The position numbers and the translations under genes were made by a program. DNA of 64,000 nt from a virus (lineage: Duplodnaviria > Caudoviricetes), in the IMG/VR virus record IMGVR_UViG_3300031963_009887, positions 1-64,000 of that record; one strand, 5' to 3'. The notes under the pieces are model-generated. The model ran no database searches. It saw only the letters and a program-made list of their open reading frames with translations, and was not told the DNA's origin. Positions within the stretch are counted from its first letter, which is position 1; every line of letters starts with the position of its first letter. Below are positions 3 through 42,067 of the stretch, in pieces.

Positions 3-2081
3 ACATCTGGTACTTCAGGAATAAGTGGTTCATCAGGTTCGGCAGGTTCATCGGCAACTTCAGGAACAAATGGTTCTTCAGGAACATCAGGAGTTGCGGG
101 AACATCAGGAGCTTCAAGAACATCAGGAACATCAGGAACAAATGGTTCATCAGGAACTAGTGGTACTTCTGGTACTGATGGAACATCAGGAGCTTCAAGA
201 ACATCAGGAACTAGCGGTACATCAGGTACATCAGGTTCAAGTGGAACTTCAGGAACATCAGGTTCAGCAGGTTCGGCGGGTTCTTCAGCAACTTCAGGTA
301 CATCAGGAACTAGCGGAACAAGTGGTTCTTCAGGTTCAGCAGGTTCATCAGCGACTTCAGGTTCTTCAGGAACATCAGGTGCGTCAGGAACATCAGGTTC
401 AGCAGGTTCATCAGCGACTTCAGGTTCTTCAGGAACATCAGGAGCGTCAGGAACATCAGGTTCAGCAGGTTCTTCAGCAACTTCAGGAACATCTGGTACT
501 TCAGGAATAAGTGGTTCGTCAGGTTCGGCAGGTTCTTCAGCAACTTCAGGAACAAACGGTTCTTCAGGAACATCGGGAGTTGCGGGAACATCAGGAGCTT
601 CAAGAACATCAGGAACATCAGGAACAAACGGTTCGTCTGGTACAAGTGGTACATCAGGTGTTGATGGAACATCAGGAGCTTCAAGAACATCAGGAACTAG
701 CGGTACATCAGGTACAAGTGGTTCTTCAGGTTCAGCAGGTTCATCAGCAACTTCAGGTACAAGTGGAACATCAGGAGTATCAGGAGCATCGGGAACATCA
801 GGTTCAGCAGGTTCATCGGCAACTTCAGGTTCAACAGGAACAAGTGGTTCTTCAGGAGCATCAGGAAATGCTGGTACATCAGGAGCGTCAGCAACATCAG
901 GTTCAAGTGGAACATCGGGAACTTCAGGTTCATCAGGAGCGTCAGGAGCATCGGCAACATCAGGAACAAGTGGAACTTCAGGTACATCAGGTTCCGCAGG
1001 AGCGTCAGGAGCATCGGCAACATCAGGAACATCAGGTACAAGTGGTACTTCAGGTTCAGCGGGTTCTTCAGCGACATCAGGAACAAATGGTTCTTCAGGA
1101 ACATCAGGAGTCGCGGGAACATCAGGAGCTTCAAGAACATCAGGAACATCAGGAACAAACGGCTCATCTGGTACAAGTGGTACATCAGGTGTTGATGGAA
1201 CATCAGGAGCTTCAAGAACATCAGGAACTAGTGGTACATCAGGTACAAGTGGTTCATCAGGAGCGTCAGGAGCATCGGCAACATCAGGAACAAGTGGAAC
1301 TTCAGGTACATCAGGTTCCGCAGGAGCGTCAGGAGCATCGGCAACATCAGGAACAAGTGGAACTTCAGGTACATCAGGTTCCGCAGGAGCGTCAGGAGCA
1401 TCTCAAACTTCAGGAACAAGTGGAACTTCAGGTACGTCAGGAGCATCAGGAAACGCTGGAACATCAGGAGCATCTGCAACTTCAGGAACTAGCGGTACAT
1501 CAGGAACATCAGGTTCAAGTGGTACTTCAGGTATATCAGGAGCTGCGGGAGCGTCAGGACAATCGGCAACATCAGGTACCTCAGGTACATCAGGAACTGC
1601 TGGTTCATCAGGAGCGTCAGGAGCATCAGCAACATCAGGTACTTCAGGTACAAGTGGTACGTCAGGAGCATCAGGAAACGCTGGAACATCAGGAGCATCT
1701 GCAACTTCAGGTTCATCAGGAACTTCAGGAACTGCAGGTTCATCAGGAGCGTCAGGAGCATCAGCAACTTCAGGTTCAAGCGGTACATCAGGAACTGCAG
1801 GTTCATCAGGAGCATCAAGAACTGCAGGTTCATCGGCAACTTCAGGTTCATCAGGAACTTCAGGAACTGCAGGTTCATCAGGAGCTGCGGGAGCTTCAGG
1901 AGCGTCAGCAACTTCAGGTACAAGTGGAACATCAGGTTCAGCGGGTTCATCAGGAAATGCGGGTACATCAGGGGCATCAAGAACTTCAGGAAGTTCAGGA
2001 ACTTCAGGAACTAGCGGTACTTCAGGTACAACAGGTTCTTCAGGATTAAGTGGTCCAAGTGGTACTTCAGGTATTAGCGGT
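3..2081 (+). repeat. Coding triplet repeat (xSG)n with nested duplications (~200-nt block at ~62, ~548, ~1079; 63-nt tandem x3 at ~1258-1400)
   Basis: Read directly: recurring tcaggaaca/tcaggttca units. The block ggaacaaa(t/c)ggttcttcagga recurs at offsets of 486 and 531 nt, and caggagcgtc recurs at 1258, 1321 and 1384. Confidence 0.9.
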
Positions 2082-2699
2082 GGTTCATTCACATGTAATA
2101 ACGTATCTGATTTGTATATCGTATACGCAGTGAATGGTTCACAAATACAATCATCTTGTTGTCTATTCATTAAAGGTTCGGATTCGTTTGTCCACAACTG
2201 CGCGGGTTACAGGTCAGGAGTTTCAGGTTCGGCAGGAGCACCATCATTCTCATGGACGGCAAATACAAACACAGGTATATTCAACAGTGGAACTTCATAT
2301 CTTGGATACTCATTGAACGGAACTGAAATGTTCAGAATGACAAACAATGGTGGATATGGTGATTTCCACGCAACTGCGAACATTATTGGATATTCAACAA
2401 CACCATCAGATGAAAGATTAAAAGATAATGTTAAAACTCTTGAAAACAGTTTAGGTATTATTGAAAAATTAAGACCTGTGTCATATACTTGGAAAGATGT
2501 TATGAGAAGAGGAAATGACTTTGGATTAATTGCTCAAGAAGTTGAAAAAATAATACCTGAAATCGTTACAAATACAACATTACTTCAAACAGGTGATGAG
2601 GAGTTATATAAAACAGTGTCATACGAAAGATTGGTACCATTCCTAATCCAATCAATTCAAGAATTGAACAATAAAATTAAAGAATTAGAAAAGAAATAA
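3..2699 (+). CDS. 5'-partial tail fibre: long Gly-X-Y Ser/Thr/Gly repeat stalk plus C-terminal peptidase S74 intramolecular chaperone
   Basis: Frame 3 reads [15 protein letters not shown]... with no stop seen and runs in frame into the track ORF 2112..2699 (junction read as ...[25 protein letters not shown]). The C-terminus [10 protein letters not shown]...LRPVSYTW...[15 protein letters not shown]...LIQSIQEL is the typical S74 chaperone. The start lies upstream of the window. Confidence 0.9.
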
Positions 2700-2700
2700 A

Positions 2701-3012
2701 ATGGCTATAAAAGTAACAACACAAATAGGAACCAGTGGTGGAATCACCACTGAAGCCTATGTAAGAATAGGTACTTATTTAATTGATAAATCCAACAATG
2801 CTGTTAGATTTGGGTTAGAAATTTATAACTCAGAAGTAGATAAAAACAATAAAGACAATATTGTGACAAATAAACAAATTGGTAATTATGTATATAAAAA
2901 GGTTAGTAGTTTTACTTCATTTGAAACTACTGATATCTTTTCAGCGGGGTATTCTGAATTAAGAACTCATTTGCAAAGTATTTACGGACCATCATCAACA
3001 GTTGATTGTTAA
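2701..3012 (+). CDS. Hypothetical protein, probable tail-fibre-associated
   Basis: 103-aa ORF starting 1 nt after the fibre stop; function inferred from position only. Confidence 0.6.
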   Translation: MAIKVTTQIGTSGGITTEAYVRIGTYLIDKSNNAVRFGLEIYNSEVDKNNKDNIVTNKQIGNYVYKKVSSFTSFETTDIFSAGYSELRTHLQSIYGPSSTVDC

Positions 3013-3018
3013 TAGAAT

Positions 3019-3633
3019 ATGGCAACACCACCAGGACCAGCATCACCCGGTAATCCTATTAGTTATGATAATATTAGGGCTGAGGTTAACTTTACGCCTA
3101 ATATTGATATTGGATTGTATGATTTTGCAACATACATATATGATGATGGTTTTATTAATGACTATACATTTTATCCAGCATTTTATCCTTTACCATCAAG
3201 TCCTGCTGGAGGTGCAGTAACACAAAACGCATCTATATCAATGTTTTATGATATAGATTCTGAGAGTTATTATGACATTCAATTCCAATCAGGAACACCT
3301 AGTTGGGTATCAACTATTGATGTGACAATTAATGATGCAACTGTTTTGGCTAGCGGTTCAAATAGTGGACCAAACGCTGATACACAAACACAAATTAATG
3401 CAATGATTCGAGGGGGGACCGCTGGTAACCAACCCCATTGGTATCAAATAGATTTACAGGTTAATTTAAATGCTGGTGCACCACCATTTACACCAGCGGT
3501 AAATGTTGATTATGACACTGGTGCTGGTTTCACCGCTTTTCCTGGTTCACCAACTACATTTCCGGGTCTATTAACTACCGGAGCAATTATTAATGTTGCA
3601 AATGGTGGGACTGTTTACATTAGAGTTTCATAA
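3019..3633 (+). CDS. Probable small fibre-tip/adhesin virion protein
   Basis: The N-terminal PISYDNIRAEV resembles the 'G.IS.SDI..E' attachment motif of proteins encoded after phage fibres; G/N/T-rich beta composition. Confidence 0.5.
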   Translation: MATPPGPASPGNPISYDNIRAEVNFTPNIDIGLYDFATYIYDDGFINDYTFYPAFYPLPSSPAGGAVTQNASISMFYDIDSESYYDIQFQSGTPSWVSTIDVTINDATVLASGSNSGPNADTQTQINAMIRGGTAGNQPHWYQIDLQVNLNAGAPPFTPAVNVDYDTGAGFTAFPGSPTTFPGLLTTGAIINVANGGTVYIRVS

Positions 3634-3647
3634 TTTTAATTTGCAAG

Positions 3648-3676
3648 TTTACTTAATAGATTTTATTTAATATACT
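3648..3676 (+). promoter_or_regulatory. Possible sigma70-like promoter (TTTACT-N17-TATACT) upstream of the 2OG oxygenase
   Basis: Hexamers at 3648-3653 and 3671-3676 with a 17-nt spacer, ending 6 nt before the ATG at 3683. The AT-rich context weakens this call. Confidence 0.4.
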
Positions 3677-3682: not shown

Positions 3683-4282
3683 ATGTCAAGTAAAATACCG
3701 ATATTTCCATACCCACCAACAATTGATATAGGTAAGCACGCAAATGTTGATGACCAATTTTCACAACCTGAAATTGATGAATTAATTAATATAATTAATT
3801 CTTTAGAGTATGAAGAAGGAAGAATTGTAAATGAAAATTTTGTTGGTGAGGTTAACAAAGATGTTAGAAAAAGTAATGTTAAATGGATATACCCAACAAA
3901 TGAAACTATGTGGTTATTTACCAAATTAATGAAAATCATCCAATCAGTTAATGGTCAACTTTGGAATTTTGAATTAATTATGGCGAGAGAACCTATTCAA
4001 TACACTGAATATGAAGACGATGGTGAATATGGTTGGCACATAGATACAGGACATGGTCCTAGTGCTCAAAGAAAAGTGTCTATGTCGGTACTGTTAACAA
4101 ATCCTGACGAATATGAAGGTGGTGATTTGGAACTATGGCCTGGTGGTGAGATTAAAACAGTGGAAAGAAAACAATATAGTATGACAATATTCCCAAGTTG
4201 TATTATGCATAGGGTTACACCCGTAACAAAAGGTATTAGAAAAAGTTTGGTATTTTGGGTAGGTGGAACACCTTACAGATAA
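3683..4282 (+). CDS. 2OG-Fe(II) oxygenase (prolyl-4-hydroxylase/PKHD-like)
   Basis: WHID (HxD), YEGGDL, MHRVTPVTKGIRKSLVFW (distal His and 2OG-binding Arg). Confidence 0.9.
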   Translation: MSSKIPIFPYPPTIDIGKHANVDDQFSQPEIDELINIINSLEYEEGRIVNENFVGEVNKDVRKSNVKWIYPTNETMWLFTKLMKIIQSVNGQLWNFELIMAREPIQYTEYEDDGEYGWHIDTGHGPSAQRKVSMSVLLTNPDEYEGGDLELWPGGEIKTVERKQYSMTIFPSCIMHRVTPVTKGIRKSLVFWVGGTPYR

Positions 4283-4653
4283 TCACTGTAAGATTTTTCT
4301 TCAATAAATCCTGAAGAAAACTTCAAATTAATTTCTTTTTTAATTTTAGCACGAACATCATTAGTATAGTAAACTGAACGAGCAAGACTAACAAATTCTT
4401 CATCAAATTCTTTTTGTCTTTCTTTGTCCCTAATATCATCTTCAATAACCCAAAGGTCTTTATTAACTGACAATAATTCTAAATACTCAGGTGATAAAGT
4501 TGAAATACCCAAATCATTTTCAACCACAGATAAAAGATACTCATACTCTTTTATGATGTTATCTAATTTATTTGGGTCGGTAATATTTTCCTTTTTAATT
4601 TGAAGAATTGTTAATTTGTCAACAATTTCTCCATGTGATACTTCTATATTCAT
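4273..4653 (-). CDS. DUF6165-like small protein of phage glycosylation clusters
   Basis: The N-terminus MNIEVSHGEIVDKLTILQIK matches the family pattern as recalled. Confidence 0.7.
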   Translation of the reverse strand: MNIEVSHGEIVDKLTILQIKKENITDPNKLDNIIKEYEYLLSVVENDLGISTLSPEYLELLSVNKDLWVIEDDIRDKERQKEFDEEFVSLARSVYYTNDVRAKIKKEINLKFSSGFIEEKSYSDYL

Positions 4654-6755
4654 AATAAATTTTGTATTTGTGATATAACCATATCTGCGGTTATAGATTT
4701 ATGACATTCAAATTGTCTTTCAGTATCTTTATGTTCAGGACACCAATTCCAATCTCCTTTATTAAATAAGAACATGGGATTATTCCAACAACCATTACAT
4801 ACTGACATATTTATAATCCTTGTACAATTTGAAGTAAATTCATGGTCAGGTTCTGTAAAATTAGAAATCATCACAACGTGTTTACCTAAAGCCCAACTTA
4901 ACCAAGATAATCCACTTGAAAGACCGACAACAAATTGACTGTGATAAATTACATTCATTGTATTATCAATTGAGTCATCTTCTAATGAATCGGCACCTTC
5001 GTATTTATCACCATTTTGTGAGATATTAATTACTTTATATCCTAATGATTTAAAATGTCTAATTAAATCAACCCATCCTGTTGGATTGTTCCAATATTTA
5101 CAACCAGCGGTTGAGTTGGTTGCAATACAAATATACTTTTCAGGGTAAGGTTTTTCTTTTGGTATAAAATCAATATTTGTTTTAATTTCTTTAAATTCTA
5201 ACCCAAGAATATTACTAGCGGTTTGTTGTAATGGTATTGTATTAGGTAATGTAGGTTCTAAATCACGATTATAAAACCAACCCAACTTATACATTGCGTA
5301 TATGTTTTTAACTTCAATACCTGGCGTAACAAACTCAATTTCAGGGTATGATTTTTCAAATAAAAAATTCTTGAAAGTTGAACAAATCACATGACATTTA
5401 TGTTTTTTTCTAAACTCATCAACATATGGTACCCAAGCAATTGAATCACCTAACGAACTTGAATCAATTGCAATATAAACTCTCATACCTTCAAAAGGAA
5501 ACTTACGGTTAAGTATTGTTCCTGATGAATTAGAAACTCTGATTCTCCAATCTTTATGAAATTTCTTATTTGATTTTGTCCACATATTACTTCTTATTTT
5601 TGAAGTATATGTTAGTGTGTTATCATCTTCAAAAAAATCTACGGTATATTCATCGTCAAGATTACTTTGAACATCAACAGTTGGACCATCAACAAAATGT
5701 ACATTTATTGCCAATTTTTCATTTAACATTGGTTTTAAATCTTTTGTTTCGTTAAACGCTTTAATAAATAAATTTTTGGTAATATCAGAAGTATATTCTT
5801 TTTGTATTTTAAGAACATCACCATACATGTTTAACAATCTTGTACAAACTGTTGACCAATCATAATATTTTCTATCAATTTCGGTATTAATCATATAATG
5901 AGCATAGTTCTCAATAACTTCCAATATACCTTTTTTAACTGATTCAGTTGACCTTTCTACTTTATACAAACCTTCAATTTTGTGGTTACCATCATATGTC
6001 CCAACAACAGGTACTCTACATGAAATTGATTCCAATAATGTTAAATTTGGGTGACCAGCTTCCAATTCTGATGGGTGAAGGAATATTGAATGCTCTTCAA
6101 TTATTTTTAATAATTCTTCTTCACTTGGATTGTGAGAAATTATGTTTAATTTACCGTACTCCAATAAATCAGGATTTGCGTTGAAAAAATTCATATTGTT
6201 AGGAGGACCAACAATTGTAATATCCATGTTTAATTCTTTAGCGGCTTCAATAGCGTATCTAAATCCTTTTCTATCTATGGTTTGGTCATCAGCATAACCA
6301 TTATTTGCTATACATAATAATTTGTGTTTAAAATCTTCCTTATAAGGTAAATCAAAAAACTTGGTATCAACACCATGTGTTAAATAAAATAACTTATCAG
6401 TTTCCTCAAAGTAATCAACTAAAAATTCTGCATGTGTAAAGGATACTATTGAACCTTTAATGGCTTCTAAATTTTGTTTATATGTATGAGAATCTTTACC
6501 ATGTCTAACAACATGATGGTCATGTAATGAAAAGATGTATGGTATACCTCTTTTTTGAGCTTCAATACCTAAATTGGCAACGTGTAAATGAATGATATCT
6601 GTATTATTTACATCAACATCATTTAAGTATTTAATATCACATACGTGACCCATTTCTTCAAATTGAAGTTTATAGTTCCATATTACTTTTTCAATTGCTC
6701 CCCAACCATTTGGAGGTATTGATATAAGACCTGGTGTTACTTGTGTTATTTTCAT
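4650..6755 (-). CDS. GT4 glycosyltransferase fused to a TibC/Aah-type (autotransporter) heptosyltransferase
   Basis: N-terminal GT-B (GWGAIEKV; FLHPSELEAGHPNLTLLESISC). C-terminal SSSLGDSIAWVPY, GLSSGLSWLSWA and four-Cys CNGCWN...WCPEH...FEC motif of TibC-like enzymes. Confidence 0.85.
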   Translation of the reverse strand: MKITQVTPGLISIPPNGWGAIEKVIWNYKLQFEEMGHVCDIKYLNDVDVNNTDIIHLHVANLGIEAQKRGIPYIFSLHDHHVVRHGKDSHTYKQNLEAIKGSIVSFTHAEFLVDYFEETDKLFYLTHGVDTKFFDLPYKEDFKHKLLCIANNGYADDQTIDRKGFRYAIEAAKELNMDITIVGPPNNMNFFNANPDLLEYGKLNIISHNPSEEELLKIIEEHSIFLHPSELEAGHPNLTLLESISCRVPVVGTYDGNHKIEGLYKVERSTESVKKGILEVIENYAHYMINTEIDRKYYDWSTVCTRLLNMYGDVLKIQKEYTSDITKNLFIKAFNETKDLKPMLNEKLAINVHFVDGPTVDVQSNLDDEYTVDFFEDDNTLTYTSKIRSNMWTKSNKKFHKDWRIRVSNSSGTILNRKFPFEGMRVYIAIDSSSLGDSIAWVPYVDEFRKKHKCHVICSTFKNFLFEKSYPEIEFVTPGIEVKNIYAMYKLGWFYNRDLEPTLPNTIPLQQTASNILGLEFKEIKTNIDFIPKEKPYPEKYICIATNSTAGCKYWNNPTGWVDLIRHFKSLGYKVINISQNGDKYEGADSLEDDSIDNTMNVIYHSQFVVGLSSGLSWLSWALGKHVVMISNFTEPDHEFTSNCTRIINMSVCNGCWNNPMFLFNKGDWNWCPEHKDTERQFECHKSITADMVISQIQNLL

Positions 6756-7750
6756 ATTGTTTTAATAAATTCGCTAAATGATTTTAATATTTGGTTATAT
6801 TCTTTTATGTGAAAATCATTATCAAATAAAAAATTTGGGTCAACAAACCCAAAATTATCAGTATAATCTTTTTTCCAATTAAAATATAGAAAATTTTCAT
6901 TAGAAAAAAACTCATCAAATGAATCAACACAATATTTTCTTTCATTATTTGTTCCTTTAATTAATTGACGTTCTTTTTCTTCATCAATTAAACCATTTTT
7001 AATTGGTGGGTTTGGGGACATAACAATCACTTTATTATTTGGATGTTTGGAAATAAAAGTCTGTAGAAATTCTTTATATTTAAATAATAACTTATTTGTT
7101 AAATGAGAAATTGAAGTATTTTTTTCTTGAGATGATTTAGGTAGACCATATCTAGTATCTATTTCACCTAAATAAAAGGCTATAATATCGCCATCTTCTA
7201 TGGGTAATAAATCAATAAATGATTTATTATCTTTATTTAAAAATCTATGTAAACTTAGTGAGGGGTGACTATACCTTATGGGTAAATAATCATGTATTGG
7301 TTCAGGGGTGTACTCATCATTACCAAAAGTTCCCCACACATTTGAATCACCAATAATCCATAATCGTTTATAATTCATTGGATATTGTTGTGATATGTTT
7401 CTTAATGGTAGATAGTTCTTATAAAAGAAAAACTTTTTTTCAAAAACTAAATAATCTTCTATATAACATCTTAAATGTACCCCACCTTTAAAACCCAATC
7501 TATTATGTTTCCCAAAATGACTACCAATCGTAAAATTAACAAAATAATTTGGACCATCAATACAATTTACATTAATAATTTCGGGTGAGTATGGTATATC
7601 AAAATACGGGTCTGATATCTTTACAGATATTGTTTGTTGTTGGTCATTTAACCCTAATGTTGTAAAATTAATTTTTAAAATTGCATTATTTATAGCAGTT
7701 TCAACATCAATATTATTAATATTGATTAATATTTTTTCTTGTTTTAACAT
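6752..7750 (-). CDS. Hypothetical protein with C-terminal SGNH/GDSL-like domain
   Basis: IIGDSN, LGEIDTR and DFH motifs; lies within the glycosylation operon. Confidence 0.5.
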   Translation of the reverse strand: MLKQEKILININNIDVETAINNAILKINFTTLGLNDQQQTISVKISDPYFDIPYSPEIINVNCIDGPNYFVNFTIGSHFGKHNRLGFKGGVHLRCYIEDYLVFEKKFFFYKNYLPLRNISQQYPMNYKRLWIIGDSNVWGTFGNDEYTPEPIHDYLPIRYSHPSLSLHRFLNKDNKSFIDLLPIEDGDIIAFYLGEIDTRYGLPKSSQEKNTSISHLTNKLLFKYKEFLQTFISKHPNNKVIVMSPNPPIKNGLIDEEKERQLIKGTNNERKYCVDSFDEFFSNENFLYFNWKKDYTDNFGFVDPNFLFDNDFHIKEYNQILKSFSEFIKTI

Positions 7751-8316
7751 TTAATAAAACTCCCCCAAAGGACTTGTTTAAATTCATTATAAAGATATGG
7801 TCTTAATTTTAATTCGGGAAGATATCTTTCTAAATTTTTATAATGAGATTCGGAAATTGTTGGCCAATCTAATTCGGTTTTTATTTTTTCGTACTCTTCG
7901 GGTGTTTCTTCATAGTCATGTAACATAACAACATCACCCGTTTTAAGATACCTTGAGAATAATTTAAATTCAGTTTCTTTATCACCACCATCACATAATA
8001 ATAATGTTTTTTTTGGTTGACTAATTAATGATTTTATTTCACCAATCACGTCAACATCAAAACAATCGGCAACTCTTAAGGTGGTATCTTTAATATTATT
8101 AACTTGTAAATAATCAGGATTATTATCGTATGATATTATTTTACATGAATCAGATTTATTTTCTGATAACCAATATGTAAAAGCACCTGTAAAAGTACCA
8201 ATCTCAATAATTTGTTCAAAGTCTTTTAATATTATTGAAAAGGCTTTAGGTATGTGTTTTGTTTGAGCGGTTCTAAATTGTTGGTCACCAATTGTAACCC
8301 ATAAAAAGTTTTCCAT
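7744..8316 (-). CDS. Class I SAM-dependent methyltransferase-like protein
   Basis: IIEIGTFTG (motif I), CDGG and MLHD. Confidence 0.6.
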   Translation of the reverse strand: MENFLWVTIGDQQFRTAQTKHIPKAFSIILKDFEQIIEIGTFTGAFTYWLSENKSDSCKIISYDNNPDYLQVNNIKDTTLRVADCFDVDVIGEIKSLISQPKKTLLLCDGGDKETEFKLFSRYLKTGDVVMLHDYEETPEEYEKIKTELDWPTISESHYKNLERYLPELKLRPYLYNEFKQVLWGSFIKC

Positions 8317-8317
8317 T

Positions 8318-12043: not shown

Positions 12044-12045
12044 AT

Positions 12046-19257: not shown

Positions 19258-19280
19258 AAATTAAATAATAATAAATCAAA

Positions 19281-20794: not shown

Positions 20795-20855
20795 TTGGAA
20801 TAAAAATACGAAAGAAATGATTAAAGGAAAACATTTTGTGGTATTTATTATTACA

Positions 20856-25443: not shown

Positions 25444-25476
25444 GGTTTGTAAATCTTTAAATTGGTATTTATCATT

Positions 25477-29142: not shown

Positions 29143-29158
29143 TTTATACCCTATAATA

Positions 29159-31669: not shown

Positions 31670-31672
31670 ATA

Positions 31673-33336: not shown

Positions 33337-33337
33337 T

Positions 33338-35014
33338 ATGAGTAACGTAACAGTTGTAACAGGACTTTGGAATATTAAACGTGACGAACTTGGTGAAGGA
33401 TGGTCAAGGACATTTCAACATTATTTGGATAAATTTGACCAATTATTACAAATTGAAAACAATATGATTATTTTTGGTGAACCCGAATTAGAATCATTTG
33501 TTTTTGAAAGAAGAGATAGGTCAAATACACAATTCATTACAAGAGATAAGGAATGGTTCAAACAAACTGTTCCTTATGATAAAATACAAGAGATTAGAAA
33601 TAATCCTGATTGGTTTGGACAAGCTGGTTGGTTACAAGATTCAACACAAGCAAAACTTGAGTGGTATAATCCTTTGGTAATGTCCAAAATGTTCTTGATG
33701 AATGATGCAAGAATTATGGACCAATTTAACTCACAACATCTTTATTGGATTGATGCTGGTATTACAAACACAATTCATCCAGGATATTTTACGCACGATA
33801 AAATACAAAACAAATTACCTGAGGTTTTTGATAAGTTTGGTTTTGTTGCGTTTCCATATGATGCAAACAACGAAATTCATGGATTCTCATATCCTAAAAT
33901 AAATTCATATGCTGGTGATGAAGTTAAGTTAGTATGTAGAGGTGGATTATTTGGCGGACCAAAACACGTATTTTCAGATATTAACGGAATATATTACAAC
34001 ATATTATCCGAGACACTAAGAAGTGGATACATGGGTACCGAAGAATCAATCTTTAGTATTATGTTATATAAACATAGTGATATGATTGATTATGTTGAAA
34101 TTGAAGGTAACGGGTTAATTTCAAAGTTCTGTGAAGATTTAAAAAATGATACATACGAAGTTAAAAATATATCAGGTAAAAAATCATTAAACAAAGATTT
34201 AAACATTAATAATTCAGCTCTTTATGTTATAACATTTAATAGTCCAAAACAATTTGAGACATTGATTGAGTCTATGATTCAATACGACAGAAACTTTTTG
34301 GATAGACCAAAAAAATATCTATTGGATAATTCATCAGATTTAGAAACAACTGAAAGATATATTGAGTTATGTAATGAGTTTGGTTTTGAACACATTAAGA
34401 AAGATAATTTAGGTATCTGTGGTGGTAGACAATTTATTGCCGAACATGCCGATGAAAACAATTTTGATTTTTATTTCTTCTTTGAGGATGACATGTTCTT
34501 TTTTCCAAAGAAAGGTGAAGTTTGTAAAAACGGATTCAATAGAACTGTAAATAATTTGTATATTAATTCATTAGAGATTACTAAGAAAGAAGACCTTGAT
34601 TTCTTAAAAATGAATTACACCGAGTTTTATGGTGACAACGGAACTCAATGGTCATGGTATAATGTACCACAACATATTAGAGAAGAATTTTGGCCAAACA
34701 AACCAAATTTACCTGTGATGGGTTTAGACCCAAATGCACCAAAAACCAACTTTAATAAAATATTAACATATAAAGGTATTCCATACGCTTTGGGTGATGT
34801 TTATTATTGTAATTGGCCACAAGTGGTTACAAAATATGGTAATCAAAAAATGTTTTTAGAAACAAAATGGGCCAGACCTTTTGAACAAACTTGGATGAGT
34901 TTCATATATCAGGAAACAAAAAAAGGTAATATAAACCCTGGATTGTTATTGTTAACACCAACCGAACATGACCGATTTGATTTTTATGACGGTTCTTTAA
35001 GAAAAGAATCATAA
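33338..35014 (+). CDS. HtrL-family domain fused to a GT-A domain
   Basis: Start moved to ATG 33338 (MSNVTVVTGLWNI). YWIDAG, GGLFGG, GTEESI, then GICGGRQ and FFEDDM. Confidence 0.75.
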   Translation: MSNVTVVTGLWNIKRDELGEGWSRTFQHYLDKFDQLLQIENNMIIFGEPELESFVFERRDRSNTQFITRDKEWFKQTVPYDKIQEIRNNPDWFGQAGWLQDSTQAKLEWYNPLVMSKMFLMNDARIMDQFNSQHLYWIDAGITNTIHPGYFTHDKIQNKLPEVFDKFGFVAFPYDANNEIHGFSYPKINSYAGDEVKLVCRGGLFGGPKHVFSDINGIYYNILSETLRSGYMGTEESIFSIMLYKHSDMIDYVEIEGNGLISKFCEDLKNDTYEVKNISGKKSLNKDLNINNSALYVITFNSPKQFETLIESMIQYDRNFLDRPKKYLLDNSSDLETTERYIELCNEFGFEHIKKDNLGICGGRQFIAEHADENNFDFYFFFEDDMFFFPKKGEVCKNGFNRTVNNLYINSLEITKKEDLDFLKMNYTEFYGDNGTQWSWYNVPQHIREEFWPNKPNLPVMGLDPNAPKTNFNKILTYKGIPYALGDVYYCNWPQVVTKYGNQKMFLETKWARPFEQTWMSFIYQETKKGNINPGLLLLTPTEHDRFDFYDGSLRKES

Positions 35015-35045: not shown

Positions 35046-37811
35046 ATGGCACTAGTTAATAGGTATTTTTATCAATGTTGTAACCCTTTAGGGTCTGGTG
35101 CTCCAATTTATAGAACATTTGAAATTGACACTGCTGGTACGTGGACCGCAAATGTAAGCACCGTTATTTATACCGGTGACGGTAGTTGTTATTACTACAC
35201 AATTACTAATTCTTTAGACCCACCAGAACAATCATTTGCAACTGAACAATATAGTACTTGTCCGGCATGTGACGCTGCAAATCCAAATGGATGTTATTAT
35301 ACTTTTTCAGCTTGTTGTGATGGTAGTACCTTTAGTATTAGAAGGGGTGATTTCGCTTTTGAAAATACATATGGACCATTAACCGTTGGTGAAATATGGA
35401 GATTTTCTATAACCACTGCCACAACGAGCCCTACAACATTTGCTTTTGTTGGGTGTGCATCTTATATTACAGGAGTCACAGGTTCAACAATTTATGTTCA
35501 GACAGGTGAAACAACAATAAATGTTACAACACCTGGTACTTGGTCTGATTGTAATGATTGTTTAACAACATACCCTTGTTGTGTTTCAGGTACCGTTGAT
35601 AATATACTTTGTTCGTATACTGATTGTTGTGGAACATTTGTGAGCGGTGGTAGTATTAATGATGTTGTATGTTTTAACCCTAATTTACCACACAGAGGTT
35701 TAGTAAGTTCGTATACCGATGCTTGTTCACAAGTTTGCCCAACACCTACACCTACGCCTACAAATACCGTAACACCAACTAATACGGTTACACCAACGGT
35801 AACTCCTACAAAAACAGTCACACCAACAGTAACACCAACAGTAACACCAACCAATACGGTTACACCAACTAAAACCGTTACACCAACCAATACGGTTACA
35901 CCAACCAATACGGTTACACCAACTTTAACACCTTCTAATACTCCCACTCCTTCAGTAACAGCTGGTCCTACGGATTATCAATTTAGGGCATGTTGTTCAC
36001 CAAACGAAATTTTTGTTGTCGATGATTATGTTGGAACCATAAATGTTGGTCAGGTGTATTATATAACAGGAACTGGTTTTACAGGCTGTGCTGAAGTAAT
36101 ACCAATGACTGGTTTTGGTGAAAGATATGTTATTAGTGGTCTGACAGGACCATACGATAATTGTTCGGTTTGTACTGACGATTATAGTTGTTGTGGACCG
36201 GGAAGTAACTGTATTGAATATCAAATTAATAATACTCAGGAGTTCCCATCAACAGTAACATATGTAGATTGTAATGGTGATAATCAAAATTTGATTGTAC
36301 CTGAACTATCTGAATTAAATATTTGTGCATGTGAATATAGTGTGATTGTACCTGAGGGTGTATTTGTTACAGTAATTGGGGACTGTAATCAAACAACACC
36401 AACACCAACTGTTACACCAACCCAAACGCCGACACCATCTGTTACACCTGTTTACAGTCCTTGTAATACTGAATTTTGTTTATATACAAACTTTTCAGGT
36501 ACATCAATGTATGATGGAAATTATACATCGGGTGGAACTTATAATGGAAGACCATATTGGACAGGTTCCACATCAGGTACTGTTTTTTATGATGGAACAA
36601 AATGGTGTTTATCCGATACTTTAGGTGGTGATTGTATATTGGCGGGTAAAACCCCATGTTTTTCAAATTGTCCTGATTTGGATGAATTGATATGGTCAGA
36701 AGGACCGTGTCCAACACCAACCCCCACACCAACACCAAACGTCTGTATTACGGTTGATTTTCAAGCGTTGTTTGATTGTGACTATGTGCCCGAACCAACT
36801 GAGACTTGTCCGACACCAACACCGACAATTAGTTTAACACCGAGTCCAAATCCTTGTCTTTTGGTAGATGCCGATGTTACAGTTGAAGATATAACTCCAA
36901 CCCCCACACCAACTCCAACAGTCACTCCGACACCAAGTTTACAAAGAAATGTACCAGTATCAGGTTCAACAACTTATATCATAAATGATACTGAATTCGA
37001 GTGTGTGTTTGTACGTAGAATTCAAGATTGTTCTGATGATGAAATTTATTATATCAATGAGTCTATGAGAACATCAGGTGGTACTATTGTAACAACAGGT
37101 CAAACCTTCAGTGCTGATGTATCAGGAACAACTAAGTGTTATACTTATTTGGATATTGTTTATGACCAAAGTCCAACTTTAACTATCAATACTATTATTG
37201 CATCATTCAGTGGATGTTCAAGTTGTGAGAACTCTTTAATACCAACACCTACTCCAACTAGTACTGTAACACCAACGGTAACTCCAACAACAACAGTAAC
37301 ACCAACTAATACAATTACACCAACATCAACACCAACTAGTTCTGTTACTCCGACAATAACACCAACTGTAACTAAGACTTCAACACCAACATATACACCT
37401 AATGCGTCACCGTCAAAGACACCTACACAAACTAAGACACCTACATTAACTCCTACGCCAACTGTTACAGTAACTCCATCGGTTACTATGACTAAGACAC
37501 CAACTAACACACCTACTAAGACACCAACTAACACACCTACCTTAACTAAAACTCCAACTCCTACACCAACTAAGACACCTACTCAAACTCCTACAAAAAC
37601 AACTTTACCTGATAAATTTATCGTAGAAAGTTGTTCTGAACCAGTTAGAAGTATTGCGGTTAACAACTTTGGTTTATTGAATGTAAGTGTCGGCGATTTT
37701 GTGAGATTGAATGGAACTGGATACTCAGGATGTTGGGAAGTTGTCGGAACTACACTGGGTGGAACTGCGACATCAATAGTTTCGGTACATAATGATTGTA
37801 CATGTTCATAA
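35046..37811 (+). CDS. Cys-rich virion protein with mucin-like Pro-Thr stalks
   Basis: 921 aa; repeated Cys modules separated by [13 protein letters not shown] blocks; TATTTATA upstream. Confidence 0.75.
35739..35960 (+). repeat. Coding [10 protein letters not shown] repeat block 1
   Basis: [36 protein letters not shown]..., read directly. Confidence 0.9.
37242..37604 (+). repeat. Coding PT repeat block 2 (~120 aa)
   Basis: [22 protein letters not shown]...[12 protein letters not shown], read directly. Confidence 0.9.
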
Positions 37812-37823: not shown

Positions 37824-38039
37824 ATGGGAAGACAGATTACAATAAACTCAATTACAGCAACACAAGGATATAATGTTTATATCTGTGATACATCACTAAT
37901 AACCTGTGTGTATTTGGCAACGATTAATGATGCTGATTTACCATTTAGTGTCAGTATACCAGCACCTTATGATACAATGGTTGATTTTAGTGTTAAAATT
38001 GTCGATGCCAATAATTGTGAAATAATTAAAAACTTCTGA
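37824..38039 (+). CDS. Small beta-rich virion-associated protein
   Basis: 71-aa ORF whose stop overlaps the next start (TGATG). Confidence 0.6.
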   Translation: MGRQITINSITATQGYNVYICDTSLITCVYLATINDADLPFSVSIPAPYDTMVDFSVKIVDANNCEIIKNF

Positions 38040-39838
38040 TGTCAACTATACTATATAATGATTGCGGTGTTATAACAATTCTACCTATGGGTGTAGAATG
38101 TTACTCAATTAATTCTTCAACACCTGACAGTAATGACGGTAGGATATATTTGACAATTACGGGAGGTTCAACACCATATTCAATTACATGGAGTAATGGG
38201 TTAAAAGACCAAAACATCAAAAATTTAATACCTGGTGAATACGTTGCAACTGTGGTAGATTTCTATGGTGATTATAGTGCAACCACAACATGTTTAGTTG
38301 AATCGGATACTTTCTACATGGATTATTTTCAAAGTTGTAATAATTCTGATTATTTGTATTTAACAGGTTTAACATCATCAAACTTTGTTGAAGGTTTAAT
38401 ATATAAATTCACAACAGCTCAGGGATGTTGGACATACTCAGGACAAACTTTATCTAGTGGTCAAACAATTACAGGTGACACTTTAAGTTCAGGTCCATTT
38501 GACACTTGTGAAGAATGTGACCCACCGCCACCACCACTACCATTTTATCCAACTGACCTTTGTTTATATACGGATAGCACACCATTCACAGCTTATCCAT
38601 TTACATTCTATGATTTTGTGAATGAAAGACCGGCCTATACTGGCACATCGTCAGCAAGTTCTGCTTTTACTATATCATATGTTTCTGCAACAACATTTAG
38701 TTATTGGACCGTATTAGGAAAAACAGGAAGTGTTTTGAAAAATTCATCGAACACCTTTAATCCTTTGGGCGGATGGGTTGAAGAAGGAACATTGAATACA
38801 TGGACTGCGGTATCAGGTTCTTGTCCATCATCACCAGTTTTATCTTTTAACTTAACAACGACTAATGAATCTTGTGAAGGTTCTTGTAATGGTAGTGTAA
38901 TAATAAAGGCTAAAGGAGGTACAGGTGGATATCAATATAAATTATTCAACGGTACCTACCAATCTTCACCACTTTTTAATAATCTGTGTCCACAAAGTGA
39001 TACTCAATTTTTTGTAAAGGACAGTTCAAATACAGAAGTTCAAGGTTCATTTACTATACTACCGGGAACTAAGAAAGTTACATATACTTTGTCATTACAA
39101 ACAAAGTCATCTACATCGAAAGAAGATTACGGAAACCAAGTAATTAAAAATTTGGATTACGAATTAAAAGTAAGTCCTCCGTTACCTGATGGTATTACAA
39201 TTGATGTTCCATTATTTATATCTGTTAATAATACCACGGCTGAACCAGGTAGTGCCACTACGGCATATACACCTGTATTATATTCAGGAACATCAACGGT
39301 ATCACCAACATCAAACTCTTTGACTTCAACAAATATTATCGTTCCAAGTCCATACAGTTTTAGATATCCATATACAACAACACAAAAAACTTTTAGTGTT
39401 TTATACCCAACAGTTACACTGAAAAAAGGGTTAACGGTATCAGGTACTGTTATTTCTACTGTTACAAAAATTAGCAGTGGAAGCTCAACACCTTGTTCAC
39501 CATTTGAAATTGAAAATATTGGAAACACTGTTCAGTTTTACACATGGGTCAATTGTACAGGAGGAACGGAAAATGGATATAACGTACAACCAGGTCAAAA
39601 AGTTAATATATGTGCTCGCGGAGTATCAACTCTTCCGCCAGGTGGTTTGAGTACTTTAGTAATAACCACAGGAACATTACCTTGTTCATCAGCAATAGTC
39701 GATGCAAATCAAAATGTTACTGTTGGATTCAATGGTCCGTCAATCACTAATAATTGTACATTATTAAAAGTTTTAACACCACAAACAAACCAATTAATAA
39801 ACACATTGTATGAACAATACTACGGTCCAAGTCAATAA
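38039..39838 (+). CDS. Virion protein with SprB-like repeats and Cys modules
   Basis: ITGGSTPYSITWSNG...NLIPGEYVATVVD and GGTGGYQY are SprB-repeat-like; shares modules with 35046..37811. Confidence 0.65.
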   Translation: MSTILYNDCGVITILPMGVECYSINSSTPDSNDGRIYLTITGGSTPYSITWSNGLKDQNIKNLIPGEYVATVVDFYGDYSATTTCLVESDTFYMDYFQSCNNSDYLYLTGLTSSNFVEGLIYKFTTAQGCWTYSGQTLSSGQTITGDTLSSGPFDTCEECDPPPPPLPFYPTDLCLYTDSTPFTAYPFTFYDFVNERPAYTGTSSASSAFTISYVSATTFSYWTVLGKTGSVLKNSSNTFNPLGGWVEEGTLNTWTAVSGSCPSSPVLSFNLTTTNESCEGSCNGSVIIKAKGGTGGYQYKLFNGTYQSSPLFNNLCPQSDTQFFVKDSSNTEVQGSFTILPGTKKVTYTLSLQTKSSTSKEDYGNQVIKNLDYELKVSPPLPDGITIDVPLFISVNNTTAEPGSATTAYTPVLYSGTSTVSPTSNSLTSTNIIVPSPYSFRYPYTTTQKTFSVLYPTVTLKKGLTVSGTVISTVTKISSGSSTPCSPFEIENIGNTVQFYTWVNCTGGTENGYNVQPGQKVNICARGVSTLPPGGLSTLVITTGTLPCSSAIVDANQNVTVGFNGPSITNNCTLLKVLTPQTNQLINTLYEQYYGPSQ

Positions 39839-39862
39839 ATCAACTAACTATATTTATATAAG

Positions 39863-42067
39863 ATGGCATTCATAATAAAAGATACAACAGCTCTAATAAA
39901 CACCCAACTAACTGATGTTGGAAGAAGAAAAATTTCTCAAGGTAACTTTAATGTTGCTTATTTTCAGTTAGGAGATAGTGAGGTTTGTTATGATTGTATC
40001 AGCGGTGGTAATTTAACAACTTTACAAGTTTTAGTTCCTGAATTTAATTATCAGAATAACACAGGTGTACCACAAAGTAATAAAATGGGTATTAAATATC
40101 CAATTTATTTGTCTAGTTCAACCGGTGAAACTAATACATTTGGTATACCTTTTCAAGATTCACAAGTAGTTCCAATTTTTAACACAGCTCAGCCAAGAGG
40201 ATTTTTTACAGGTTCAACAGGAGCGTTTAGTGCTTTTACAAGTTCAGCACTTACCGTGACTGCAAATTATAAATTTAATTTATCGGCATTAACAAGTGGG
40301 AATACATTTGATGTCACTGTCAACAACTGTGATGCTACTGTGACAGGAACACCTGAAGTTGGTCAGTTTGTTGTTTTATATTTAAATAATGATAATAACT
40401 GCGGTAATGATTTAACTTATCCATATCCTATTTTAACTTACAGAGTTGAAGATGTCGTTGGAAGTACAATAACTGTTGATAGAATATTACCTGACTTTAG
40501 TTCATTTACAGGAACAGGAAGAGCGTTTTTCTACCCATCAGGTATGACACCATATTATGATAGTTATACACCAACACCATACTATGATGGTGGTGTGTTT
40601 TCGTTTGAGTTGAATTGTGAAATTCAACAACAAGATGTCTTAGTTTGGAATATGAATCAGCCATGGACCGAATCACCAGCAGGTTTATCATATACTTTTT
40701 ACAAAGATTTCAGTGAATTTGGTTCAACGGGTTATTCGTCGACAAAAGAATTCTTGGGATATCAAACCAAAGGTGGTCAAATTTTCGAAGACATAAATTA
40801 TGTTTCAGGAACAACTGACACATTTTATTACAATTCATTTGATGAAAAAATATATGTTGAACCAGAGGAACAAAAAGTTATTGGTTTGATACATTATACC
40901 AATCAGGGTATTGATAATTTTTATGGTGAGAAATTTGCAACAGAAGCATTTGACTTGGCAAATTCAGGTGCCACAGGACAAGGAAGAAACTTTAAACTTG
41001 ACTTACCAACTTTGATGTGGCATAAATCAAATACAGGTGTTATGGGTGAATCATTCTACGTTGACCCTGATGGTTTTGATGGTTTAAATTTATTTCAACC
41101 ACATTATATGTTATCAGAAGAAAATGATAATATGAATTATCCGGGTTTACGTTATTATCACTTATGGGATACTCACGCAAATGCTGATGGATATCCAAAC
41201 AGAGTTGGTAAAGTATTTCCTGATTTGAAAATGATAGCAATTGATGATGAAGAATTATCAGCCGCCATGTCGTATAAATCAAATAGAAACTATACATTAC
41301 CCGCACCAAGATTAGGATTGGTGGTTCCAAACACGTTTAACCAAAACATCGCGGCAACAAGTGGTATATTAACAGGTGATACTGAAACAATGTTTGTAAC
41401 ATACCGATTTGAAAACACTGGTTCTACAAATGGTTTACATTGTAACTATTACTCAAAAATTGCAGGTTCAACCGTAAGTGGTCAAACAGATGATGTAATT
41501 GTGAGATTTGGTAATGAATTCCCATTCTTAATTGAGGACATGGGTTTACAACCTTCAGGATTTACATGTACTAATGTTAAGTTAATTTGTCAAATTGTAC
41601 CAACGGGTGAAAGACCTGATTCGATGCAGTGGAGAGAAATTGATGTTACATCTGCAATTACAGCAAACACTGGCTCTATCAATATTGGACCACTCGAAAT
41701 AAGCGGAACAACATTTCAAATAACAAAAGACGAATACGATAACGCGAGTTTTTATAGATTAGAAAATTACATTGAATTACCATTGATTAACTATAATACT
41801 GGTATGACGTTTGGTGATGAATATTTCTTTTATGGAACAGTTCATTCTGATGTACAAGCAACAATATATGAAATGAGATATTTGGTTAACCTTGCTGATT
41901 CACAATATATTCGTTCATCAAATCCAAAATGGTCGTTAGGTAAAGATGTGTATTTCACTGAAGTAGGATTATATAACTCTGACCAAGATTTATTAATGAT
42001 GTCAAAATTACAGAATCCCGAAAAAAGACAAGGGGTACAACAGATTACCGTAAAATACGATTTTTAA
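39863..42067 (+). CDS. Large structural protein, probable baseplate/tail-collar component
   Basis: The C-terminus VYFTEVGLY...LMMSKLQNP resembles tail-collar/baseplate ends; TATTTATA upstream. Confidence 0.55.
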   Translation: MAFIIKDTTALINTQLTDVGRRKISQGNFNVAYFQLGDSEVCYDCISGGNLTTLQVLVPEFNYQNNTGVPQSNKMGIKYPIYLSSSTGETNTFGIPFQDSQVVPIFNTAQPRGFFTGSTGAFSAFTSSALTVTANYKFNLSALTSGNTFDVTVNNCDATVTGTPEVGQFVVLYLNNDNNCGNDLTYPYPILTYRVEDVVGSTITVDRILPDFSSFTGTGRAFFYPSGMTPYYDSYTPTPYYDGGVFSFELNCEIQQQDVLVWNMNQPWTESPAGLSYTFYKDFSEFGSTGYSSTKEFLGYQTKGGQIFEDINYVSGTTDTFYYNSFDEKIYVEPEEQKVIGLIHYTNQGIDNFYGEKFATEAFDLANSGATGQGRNFKLDLPTLMWHKSNTGVMGESFYVDPDGFDGLNLFQPHYMLSEENDNMNYPGLRYYHLWDTHANADGYPNRVGKVFPDLKMIAIDDEELSAAMSYKSNRNYTLPAPRLGLVVPNTFNQNIAATSGILTGDTETMFVTYRFENTGSTNGLHCNYYSKIAGSTVSGQTDDVIVRFGNEFPFLIEDMGLQPSGFTCTNVKLICQIVPTGERPDSMQWREIDVTSAITANTGSINIGPLEISGTTFQITKDEYDNASFYRLENYIELPLINYNTGMTFGDEYFFYGTVHSDVQATIYEMRYLVNLADSQYIRSSNPKWSLGKDVYFTEVGLYNSDQDLLMMSKLQNPEKRQGVQQITVKYDF

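Follow-up and report, generated by a model that had tools for sequence, protein, structure and literature searches.

Does a phage with a large set of sugar-transferring enzymes use these on its own particle? This question is raised by a 64,000-nucleotide stretch of DNA (termed the window) from an uncultured virus of the Caudoviricetes (IMG/VR record IMGVR_UViG_3300031963_009887), where two clusters of glycan-related genes sit among genes for fibre-type proteins rich in Ser and Thr. A first inspection of the DNA letters (the original prediction) had proposed that the clusters form a system for O-glycosylation of virion proteins, with camouflage, stability or host recognition as possible benefits. 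The follow-up analysis favours the same answer, namely that cytoplasmic phage enzymes O-glycosylate the phage's own fibres. This is the best reading of the data, yet unproven, and we hold it with moderate confidence. The enzyme families, the solubility of the proteins, the gene order in related phages and staining of the virions of a distant relative, XacN1, speak for it; a strict link between TibC-type enzymes and collagen-like fibres does not hold.

The window comprises bases 183-64182 of a linear 71.7-kb viral contig that is estimated at 24% of the genome. The source is an uncultured jumbo phage with a genome of roughly 300 kb, and the window represents about one quarter of it. Relatives of its GT60 glycosyltransferase with 73-97% identity are found on at least 286 IMG/VR contigs, the largest of which is 295 kb and one of which is rated 98% complete, and therefore the window is a fragment from a jumbo-phage lineage that is common and uncultured. 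In the databases, Microcystis phage Mel-JY01 and huge uncultured phages come closest, with protein identities of 23-35%. A known cyanomyovirus with 'LPS (lipopolysaccharide) genes' was rejected as the source: a megablast search against phage records was empty and protein searches led to Mel-JY01 and huge uncultured phages.

Organization of the glycan genes

Cluster 1 (4273-20794) lies on the minus strand and has 16 open reading frames (ORFs); cluster 2 (27877-35014) is on the plus strand and has seven ORFs as called. With a 2-oxoglutarate (2OG) oxygenase gene and the flanking small ORFs, the total is 26 ORFs. Pfam and PHROG searches show structural-type genes on the flanks of both clusters, and the two predicted clusters between structural genes (4.3-20.8 and 27.9-35.0 kb) are thus borne out by ORF annotation. 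Family-level glycan annotation was obtained for 16-17 of the 26 ORFs, with approximately 19 catalytic domains, and about one third of the cluster ORFs have no family. The earlier count of about 24 glycan-related genes becomes an upper bound, as five ORFs have no family behind them. Ser plus Thr make up 8-15% of the cluster enzymes vs 17-46% of the fibre-type proteins.

All 26 ORFs lack a membrane segment, and in the two clusters no hydrophobic 19-mer exceeds a Kyte-Doolittle value of 1.6. In addition, no Pfam or NCBIfam family for a priming transferase, flippase, polymerase, ligase (Wzx/Wzy/WaaL) or ABC exporter was matched in the clusters, in keeping with the initial failure to recognise Wzx, Wzy or WaaL. 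The lack of a membrane segment or an export family indicates that glycan synthesis takes place in the cytoplasm, on an acceptor that is soluble or peripheral. Building in the cytoplasm fits phage proteins that await assembly; soluble transferases of the LPS-core type remain compatible with it.

Candidate acceptor proteins

Two proteins stand out by their sequence as proposed acceptors, a collagen-like tail fibre as a substrate for heptosylation and a Pro-Thr (PT) linker protein as a mucin-like substrate for GT60. The fibre gene (3-2699, plus strand) is truncated at its 5′ side by the contig start, and its product matches Pfam Collagen (236 bits), Peptidase_S74 (60 bits) and tail-fibre PHROGs. 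The stalk is a Gly-X-Y array with 231 in-register triplets and is ~695 amino acids (aa) long in the window, to which the contig adds 60 residues. The ~690-aa xSG stalk described earlier is thus confirmed as a (Gly-Thr/Ser/Ala-Ser)n stalk. Position 1 is Gly in 86% of triplets, with Ala or Arg substituting about every seven triplets, which matches 63-bp periods in the DNA. Position X is T (54%), S (23%) or A (15%), and position Y is S in 82%. The stalk runs into a globular C-terminus with the Peptidase_S74 intramolecular chaperone, a tail-fibre end.

Bacterial collagen-like helices are usually stabilised by Pro or by charged pairs. The phage stalk has the Gly-X-Y periodicity of collagen but not stabilisation by Pro/hydroxyproline (Hyp) or by charged pairs: Pro is at 0.1%, Arg at 1.1% and Asp at 0.4%, and Lys and Glu are absent among the residues listed. 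Therefore a different stabiliser is required if a triple helix forms. Glycosylated Thr is known to stabilise Hyp-free collagen, as (Gly-Pro-Thr)10 is triple-helical only if galactosylated, and natural collagens with glycosylated Thr are BclA and that of Riftia (PMC11923368).

The contig begins within the collagen-like repeat, and repeats of this kind also terminate many related contigs; they are therefore assembly breakpoints. A 2OG-Fe(II) oxygenase gene of the PKHD (PiuC/YbiX) type (3683-4282, plus strand; PF13640, 60.5 bits; NF003974, 75 bits, below cut-off) appears intact and adjoins the collagen fibre gene here and in a relative, G001 (L086 16395-16982, 36% identity). The closest solved structures are those of PiuC, and the stalk offers no Pro or Lys for hydroxylation.

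The second candidate is a 921-aa protein (35046-37811, plus strand) that begins 32 bp past the end of cluster 2. Its translation and linker map show Cys-rich modules joined by seven PT linkers, not the two PT blocks first reported. Two of the linkers are long (residues 232-306 and 733-853). Together the linkers take up 261 of the 921 residues, with 118 Thr and 69 Pro, and Ser plus Thr amount to 29% of the protein. Homologues with 77-86% identity occupy the same position in three related loci (L003-L005). The globular modules contain 51 Cys (5.5%), which is unusual for a protein of the bacterial cytoplasm; these could be metal ligands or become disulfide-bonded once the cell has lysed.

TibC/Aah-type enzymes and a possible source of heptose

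Two cluster 1 proteins, both encoded on the minus strand, belong by sequence to the TibC/Aah family of protein O-heptosyltransferases. In the product of 4650-6755, a GT4-type N-terminal portion (Glycos_transf_1) is fused to a TibC/Aah-type domain (residues ~347-699); that of 17070-18260 is a stand-alone enzyme. These score 304.6 bits (model positions 9-373) and 246.4 bits (11-373) with TIGR04414, for which the curated equivalog cut-off is 200. With the PF11397 match of the GT60 protein (239 bits), the two family assignments on which the original prediction leaned are firm.

The catalytic Asp110, the adenine-contacting Arg286 and the iron-finger Cys residues have been defined for TibC (PMC4358343). 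The stand-alone phage protein, aligned to TibC (4rap), retains the equivalents of Asp110, Arg286 and Cys339/342/358/370. The fused copy retains the catalytic Asp (GDSIAW) and the iron-finger pattern CNGC...C...C. The catalytic motifs GDNLAW and GDSIAW align with ...TLGDLLGW of TibC. The stand-alone copy has a 9-residue gap where TibC has the tip of its thumb hairpin (265-273), and in a MAFFT alignment both phage copies are without this segment. In TibC this hairpin (Phe265/Val266) links dimers into a dodecameric ring (PMC4358343), and assembly of the phage proteins may differ.

A third, degenerate paralogue of 214 aa (16429-17073, minus strand; TIGR04414, 23.5 bits) corresponds to the TibC N-terminal part. 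It has no catalytic Asp, YKES replaces GDxxAW and most of the catalytic domain is gone. It could serve as a non-catalytic subunit that binds substrate, or else be a copy in decay.

Where would the heptose come from? A shortened HldD-like ADP-glycero-manno-heptose 6-epimerase is encoded at 19988-20794 (minus strand; TIGR02197, 186 bits, less than the cut-off of 274.6; Epimerase, 89 bits). GmhA and HldE (adenylyltransferase domain II) are absent from the contig and from four relatives, one of them 98% complete. A phage-encoded ADP-heptose pathway is rejected on the basis of these five records; therefore any heptose used must derive from the host, the phage giving only the HldD-like epimerase.

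TibC-type genes and collagen-like fibres in related phages

A single-protein scan found no close TibC relatives in viral contigs, and the census of TibC genes was done by family searches across whole records. In all five informative records, a full-score TibC gene is 0.03-9 kb from a collagen-like fibre gene: the present contig (G000), G001, G006, G007 and Mel-JY01. Five other records have neither a TibC gene nor a collagen-like fibre (G002, which is 91% complete, G004, G005, G009 and G014). G003, G013 and G015 could not be scored, as these have a collagen repeat only at a contig end. TibC without collagen is found in G008, a mere 17-kb fragment, and G010 and G011 have only TibC-like genes below threshold. 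Strict co-occurrence is rejected because of one counter-example, G012, which is described with the other points that oppose glycosylation of the phage's own fibres. The association of TibC with collagen is real and not obligatory; it should be pointed out that the records are related and the counts are not independent.

The local arrangement is also shared. The order TibC, DUF6165 and a convergent fibre gene is found in three divergent genomes, i.e. the present contig, G006 and G001. The DUF6165 protein (4273-4653, minus strand; 126 aa; PF19662, 38.8 bits) has 66% identity with that of G006 (L085 14355-14735) and 90% with that of G001 (L086 9839-10225), and it possibly assists the heptosyltransferase as an accessory factor. 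The TibC domain of Mel-JY01 forms the end of a 1227-aa fusion that contains FkbM.

Runs of (Gly-Ser/Thr-Ser)n are common in the lineage, with an open frame of up to 3345 codons in G006. This frame (G006:C1:41538-50621; L085 14765-19000) consists almost wholly of this repeat, is 30 bp from the TibC-DUF6165 pair and convergent to it, and it would rank among the longest collagen-like frames of phages. In Mel-JY01 (L002, PP395634.1), a 1016-codon plus-strand frame at 2-3052 with 606 Gly-X-Y residues overlaps minus-strand coding sequences annotated at 1-651 and 739-2298; in the deposited record, the wrong strand was probably annotated for this collagen-like repeat.

The GT60 cassette

The first gene of cluster 2 (27877-29142, plus strand) encodes a GT60 protein of the polypeptide alpha-GlcNAc-transferase type (PF11397, 239.3 bits, E 1e-70, cut-off 21). 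The motif D98-S99-H100 (DxH) is invariant in 32 sequences, including those of XacN1 and RAS14. DxH in place of DxD is a signature common to GT27 and GT60, and a deep GT-A phylogeny unites these two families and ties them to polypeptide Ser/Thr O-glycosylation (PMC7185993). Sequence-level searches of the PDB gave nothing, whether the query was the sequence alone or a profile of 32 sequences. The AF2 model (pLDDT 78) mostly resembles mucin-type polypeptide GalNAc-transferases: Foldseek lists GalNAc-T1/T2/T4/T7/T10, TgGalNAc-T3 and PGANT9B at E ~1e-7 and TM 0.4-0.49, and some teichoic-acid GT2 enzymes also score. The GT60 protein is proposed to be the initiating transferase on Thr/Ser of PT linkers.

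An acceptor Hyp for GT60 had been implied as well, and this is unsupported by synteny. The sole 2OG oxygenase is PiuC/YbiX-like and lies 23 kb from GT60, next to the collagen gene. A homologue of this oxygenase was found near GT60 in none of 80 related loci, and a main route in which a 2OG oxygenase supplies Hyp to GT60 is rejected.

The cassette ends with a tandem GT-A protein (33338-35014, plus strand; PF09612, 57 bits), in which an HtrL/YibB-like N-domain is followed by a GT2-like C-domain. The ORF as called starts at TTG 33224 (596 aa). The true start is probably the in-frame ATG at 33338, judging from the sequence, because ~57 homologues are ~557 aa long and this ATG comes after the stop of the preceding gene. 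The AF2 model (pLDDT 88.9) has two GT-A domains, with GT2-like motifs in the C-terminal one. Foldseek matches are LH3, Mimivirus R699, COLGALT1, K4CP and LARGE1, with TM ~0.27; because these scores are low, only the two-GT-A architecture is shared with such proteins.

The conservation of the cassette was assessed with 80 loci fetched around GT60 relatives, which are not phylogenetically independent. The tandem GT-A gene (homologues of ~557 aa) follows GT60 in 77 of the 80, with 1-13 intervening genes that vary between relatives. In the 98%-complete relative (G001) the cassette holds GT10, a firm GT11, FkbM, GT25 and GT61. PT tracts are in the ORF immediately upstream of GT60 in 54 of 70 loci (same strand in 69 of the 70) and in the ORF immediately after the cassette in 18 of 73. 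No PT tract was found inside a cassette. Over all ORFs of the GT60 loci, 145 of 1221 have PT tracts, vs 0 of 276 in the 12 control loci, which were taken from related phages and anchored on non-structural genes; on the present contig, it is one ORF of 67. Thus PT-tract proteins concentrate at cassette borders. Those PT-bearing neighbours that can be annotated are Laminin_G_3/CBM-type proteins. In the window, three plus-strand paralogues of ~720 aa lie upstream of GT60 (20817-23003, 23003-25174 and 25462-27606). These have CBM_4_9 and Laminin_G_3 domains and match phrog_8510 ('virion structural protein'), and are probable virion fibre or decoration proteins. The proteins at this position in relatives bear PT tracts.

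A check suggested along with the original prediction was whether the glycosyltransferase families co-occur with Ser/Thr-repeat structural genes in related jumbo phages. The pairing of GT60 with PT tracts and the adjacency of TibC and collagen agree with it, and G012 is an exception to the latter.

GT60 proteins with 45-47% identity (47% in XacN1) are also encoded by a second and distant set of jumbo phages, namely XacN1, Xoo-sp13, CM1 and RAS14. This group retains GT60, the carbamoyltransferase, an HtrL-like gene (41%; ORF330 in XacN1) and GT9 beside baseplate genes. The cassette also adjoins a gene for a protein of >3000 aa with a PT linker (3313 aa in XacN1). XacN1 virions show at least two periodate-Schiff-positive bands; the authors suggested two annotated glycosyltransferases as the cause, one of which is the GT60 homologue (PMC5852040).

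Proposed mechanism and alternative explanations

From family membership, motifs, solubility and gene neighbourhoods, which are direct observations, we infer acceptors, donors, an order of steps and a benefit. The system would act on fibre proteins before or during virion assembly and would have two arms. In the first, the TibC/Aah-type enzymes (4650-6755 and 17070-18260) would move heptose from host ADP-heptose to Ser/Thr of the stalk, with the HldD-like epimerase as the only phage contribution to the donor pathway. GT4, GT2 and GT9 enzymes would elongate these heptose-primed sugars, and FkbM/FtsJ methyltransferases, a PglD-like acetyltransferase and a NodU-type carbamoyltransferase would cap them. 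Dense sugars would then stabilise and protect a triple helix devoid of Pro and Hyp. In the second arm, GT60 would initiate mucin-type glycans, probably with alpha-GlcNAc, on Thr/Ser of the PT linkers of neighbouring fibre or decoration proteins. Variable transferases (GT10, GT11-like and others) would elongate these and the conserved tandem GT-A enzyme would complete them.

One can go further and propose that this widespread lineage, and cultured relatives such as Mel-JY01 and XacN1, make both 'phage mucins' and a collagen free of proline. (Gly-Thr-Ser)n stalks of up to several thousand residues would then depend for folding, or for staying folded, on hyper-heptosylation by TibC-type enzymes, and the PT linkers of fibre proteins with lectin domains would bear GT60-initiated glycans that are fucosylated, methylated and carbamoylated and vary by phage in the manner of an O-antigen. 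This extended version is tentative, and we consider it somewhat doubtful as a whole.

Several points weigh against glycosylation of the phage's own fibres. GT9, HtrL/YibB and HldD are families classically associated with the LPS core. The SprB-repeat protein (38039-39838), the product of 39863-42067 and the PT protein are no more than putative virion components, and the periodate-Schiff-positive bands of XacN1 have not been matched to proteins. The TibC-type phage proteins are without the thumb hairpin that the TibC dodecamer requires, and the characterised TibC/Aah members all target beta-helical autotransporters, not collagen-like repeats (PMC4358343). G012 (42% complete) has an internal (GSS)n and PT protein beside GT60 and no TibC in 146 kb. 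Finally, adjacency may reflect a shared hypervariable accessory island of fibre and sugar genes. The G012 protein itself (L047) has 1843 aa, with (GSS)n runs and eight PT tracts, and its ORF ends 2.4 kb upstream of GT60. The GT60 arm may act on collagen-like stalks too.

The main rival is remodelling of the host envelope, where the clusters would rebuild LPS core, O-antigen or capsule, such that superinfection is blocked or progeny do not re-adsorb, and the neighbouring fibre genes would merely belong to the same fast-evolving accessory island. We regard it as unlikely, though it deserves the most serious attention among the alternatives. Not only GT9, HtrL/YibB and HldD but also GT25 and GT2/GT4 are typical of LPS or polysaccharide loci, and cassette content is hypervariable among close relatives, as with O-antigen. 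Glycosyltransferase clusters have been read in a survey of jumbo (cyano)phages as diversifiers of outer polysaccharides that pre-empt rival phages (PMC7824862). Yet the two best-supported enzyme families of the window glycosylate polypeptides in characterised members, and neither a priming or export family nor a membrane segment is present. The GT9 protein (18244-19257, minus strand; PF01075, 58.5 bits) is heptosyltransferase-like and below every equivalog cut-off: it scores 26-36 bits with the LPS heptosyltransferase models, far under cut-offs of 135-570. Enrichment of PT-tract proteins specifically at cassette borders and the staining of XacN1 virions as glycoproteins also argue against the envelope as the target.

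If polypeptides are the acceptors, perhaps these are not virion proteins at all. Host adhesins, autotransporters or cytoplasmic proteins, or non-structural phage proteins, could be modified for cell takeover or protection. The founding GT60 members include an enzyme that modifies a cytoplasmic regulator, all characterised TibC/Aah enzymes modify bacterial autotransporter adhesins and none of the acceptors proposed here is proven in a virion. We nevertheless judge this improbable: Pfam finds no autotransporter family among the window proteins, the conserved neighbours are repeat-rich proteins of the fibre type, and no host acceptor can be named. Still less credible, to the point that we give it hardly any weight, is hypermodification of DNA, in which glycans on modified bases of the genome would evade restriction. 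Phage glycosyltransferases are best known for DNA glucosylation, diverse DNA glycans have been described (work cited in PMC12619734) and the window has a DNA methyltransferase gene (61642-62484). Against this, no base hydroxymethylase or thymidylate-synthase-like gene is found among the scanned window ORFs, TibC/Aah, GT60, GT10/11 and NodU-type proteins have no known DNA-modifying members, and the clusters are in the fibre module rather than the replication module. O-glycosylation of the phage's own fibres remains the explanation that we favour.

Other genes of the region

Most of the other cluster 1 genes, all on the minus strand, encode enzymes that would elongate or modify sugars. An FtsJ-like S-adenosylmethionine methyltransferase (7744-8316; PF01728, 26.5 bits) has homologues in 13 related GT60 loci. 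Other products are a GT2 (GT-A) glycosyltransferase with a C-terminal extension (9079-10833; PF00535, 89.9 bits; weak HAD-IIIC match C-terminally) and a hexapeptide-repeat, PglD-like sugar N-acetyltransferase (10830-11402; Hexapep, 58.8 bits, and PglD_N). There are three FkbM methyltransferase domains, in two separate proteins (12046-12888; PF05050, 27.7 bits, and 19281-19991; PF05050, 28.4 bits) and in a GT4 fusion (12888-14849; PF00534, 32 bits; PF05050, 55.7 bits). The NodU/TobZ-type sugar O-carbamoyltransferase (14849-16432) matches Carbam_trans_C (174 bits) and Carbam_trans_N (104 bits), with NodU as the top NCBIfam model. A short DegT/DnrJ-type aminotransferase-like protein of 214 aa (11399-12043; PF01041, 40 bits) covers only positions 24-104 of the 360 of the model. 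The same short form is found in relatives (L004 3-620; L086 1339-1983), and since it is kept at 76-90% identity it is not a recent pseudogene. Pfam and NCBIfam give no family for 8318-9082, nor for 6752-7750, where a GDSL-like match appears only at E 0.05.

In cluster 2 (plus strand), GT60 is followed by a possible GT11 (alpha-1,2-fucosyltransferase-like) protein with a weak match (29159-29998; PF01531, 16.8 bits, E 0.004); the firm GT11 of G001 (96 bits) occupies the same cassette. A GT10 protein of the alpha-1,3-fucosyltransferase type (29995-30990; PF00852, 37.4 bits) comes next, and GT10 recurs in the cassettes of relatives. Pfam and NCBIfam searches were empty for the three ORFs at 30983-31669, 31673-32410 and 32410-33336, which have homologues (~28-32% identity) in 7, 10 and 27 related cassettes, respectively. 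For the leftover cluster ORFs in general, Pfam searches to E 5 and NCBIfam gave nothing usable.

Two small plus-strand ORFs (2701-3012 and 3019-3633) directly 3′ of the fibre gene have no family at E<=0.01; the best hint is a Gp77 fibre-adaptor at E 0.11, which is at chance level. Downstream of the PT protein gene on the plus strand are genes for the SprB-repeat protein (38039-39838; PF13573, 42.7 bits), which has 27% Ser+Thr and is probably structural or adhesin-like, and for a 734-aa phage-specific protein (39863-42067) that has no family and whose Atlas neighbours are viral hypothetical proteins only. The latter is the last gene before an intrinsic terminator with an 11-bp stem (42267-42293). 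This terminator closes the fibre/glycan block and is the sole clear one on the plus strand; the promoter/terminator scan otherwise gave chance counts. A single terminator at this site is compatible with co-transcription of the cassette and the PT protein gene, which we infer from its position. Cluster 1 and the first CBM/LamG gene diverge across a 22-bp gap (20794-20817), which leaves scant space for two promoters.

The right half of the window encodes a DnaG-like primase, a PD-(D/E)XK nuclease, SbcCD-like nucleases, a sigma factor and the DNA methyltransferase. No tRNA genes were found in the window, and no capsid or tail-tube genes on the 71.7-kb contig. The G+C content is ~30% across the window, the first 2 kb excepted.

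Significance

If the proposal is true, complex glycans that diversify fast cover the fibres of a large set of jumbo phages that are common in the environment. Host recognition, particle stability, resistance to proteases and grazers, and the prediction of host range from fibres would all be affected. The autotransporter-type heptosyltransferases and the protist-type GT60 would gain a new kind of acceptor. The collagen-like stalk would be a natural test of a sugar-stabilised, proline-free collagen, i.e. a new way of stabilising the collagen helix, and the GT60 cassette would be a virus-encoded mucin-type pathway in bacteria. As the cultured phages Mel-JY01 and XacN1 bear parts of the system, direct testing is possible.

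Comparison with known systems

To our knowledge, self-glycosylation of phage particles has been experimentally established only in some mycobacteriophages. Literature searches on TibC or GT60 in phages gave nothing relevant. For mycobacteriophages, O-glycosylation of structural proteins of the phage by its glycosyltransferases and methyltransferases in the host cytoplasm has been proposed or demonstrated (Freeman et al. 2023, cited in PMC12619734). The present phage likewise has genes for glycosyltransferases and methyltransferases. In the mycobacteriophage examples cited there, the sites are Ser/Thr-rich C-terminal tails of capsid and tail-tube proteins, the phages are small siphoviruses of Actinobacteria, and one or two transferases take part; the island described here has ~19 catalytic domains paired with collagen-like and PT-linker fibre proteins in a jumbo phage.

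The TibC-type proteins resemble the BAHT enzymes (TibC, AAH) in equivalog score, in the N-terminal barrel and GT-B-like catalytic domain, and in the Asp, Arg and Cys4 iron finger. As in BAHT systems, the enzymes are soluble and cytoplasmic, and a long, repetitive, fibrous Ser/Thr protein, here the presumed acceptor, is encoded nearby. In contrast to BAHT with TibA/AIDA-I, this presumed acceptor is a collagen-like phage stalk and not the beta-helical passenger of an autotransporter. The phage copies also differ in having no thumb tip (265-273), in the fusion of one of them to GT4 (to FkbM in Mel-JY01) and in the DUF6165 companion.

The phage GT60 shares the Pfam family, the DxH motif and a GT-A fold near that of the ppGalNAc-Ts with the protist GT60 (Dictyostelium Gnt1/GntB, the Trypanosoma cruzi mucin transferase) and with GT27. 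Its gene is beside Thr/Pro-rich tracts and is followed by fucosyltransferase-type genes, which recalls the stepwise extension of protein-linked GlcNAc. Unlike in protists, the enzyme is phage-encoded, the extension enzymes are different and vary by phage, and a tandem GT-A gene closes the cassette. In the Skp1-type pathway, P4H1 acts before Gnt1 and extension follows, whereas no prolyl hydroxylase is linked to the phage GT60. Direct modification of Thr/Ser is therefore likelier than a route via Hyp.

Mimivirus R699/L230 and the capsid glycans of chloroviruses provide a parallel for virus-encoded glycosylation of surface fibres that is independent of the endoplasmic reticulum, as is proposed here. 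The similarity to LH3/COLGALT1/R699 is in the tandem GT-A layout only (TM ~0.27). In giant-virus and animal collagen glycosylation the acceptor is hydroxylysine, and the phage stalk is without Lys or Pro. Closer in composition are BclA of the Bacillus anthracis exosporium and the Riftia cuticle collagen, which are Hyp-free, Thr-rich Gly-X-Y proteins (PMC11923368). These have Gly-Pro-Thr, whereas the phage has Gly-Thr-Ser with 0.1% Pro and periodic changes of Gly to Ala/Arg, and the enzymes are unrelated.

Self-glycosylation is thus already known from mycobacteriophages and suspected for XacN1, and giant viruses glycosylate fibrils or capsids with their own enzymes. What appears new, as judged from sequence families, is that jumbo phages encode protein transferases of the BAHT and GT60 types. 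Also new are the conserved cassette of variable content that runs from GT60 to the tandem GT-A gene and is paired with PT-linker proteins, and the occurrence of TibC-type genes together with collagen-like fibres that are free of proline.

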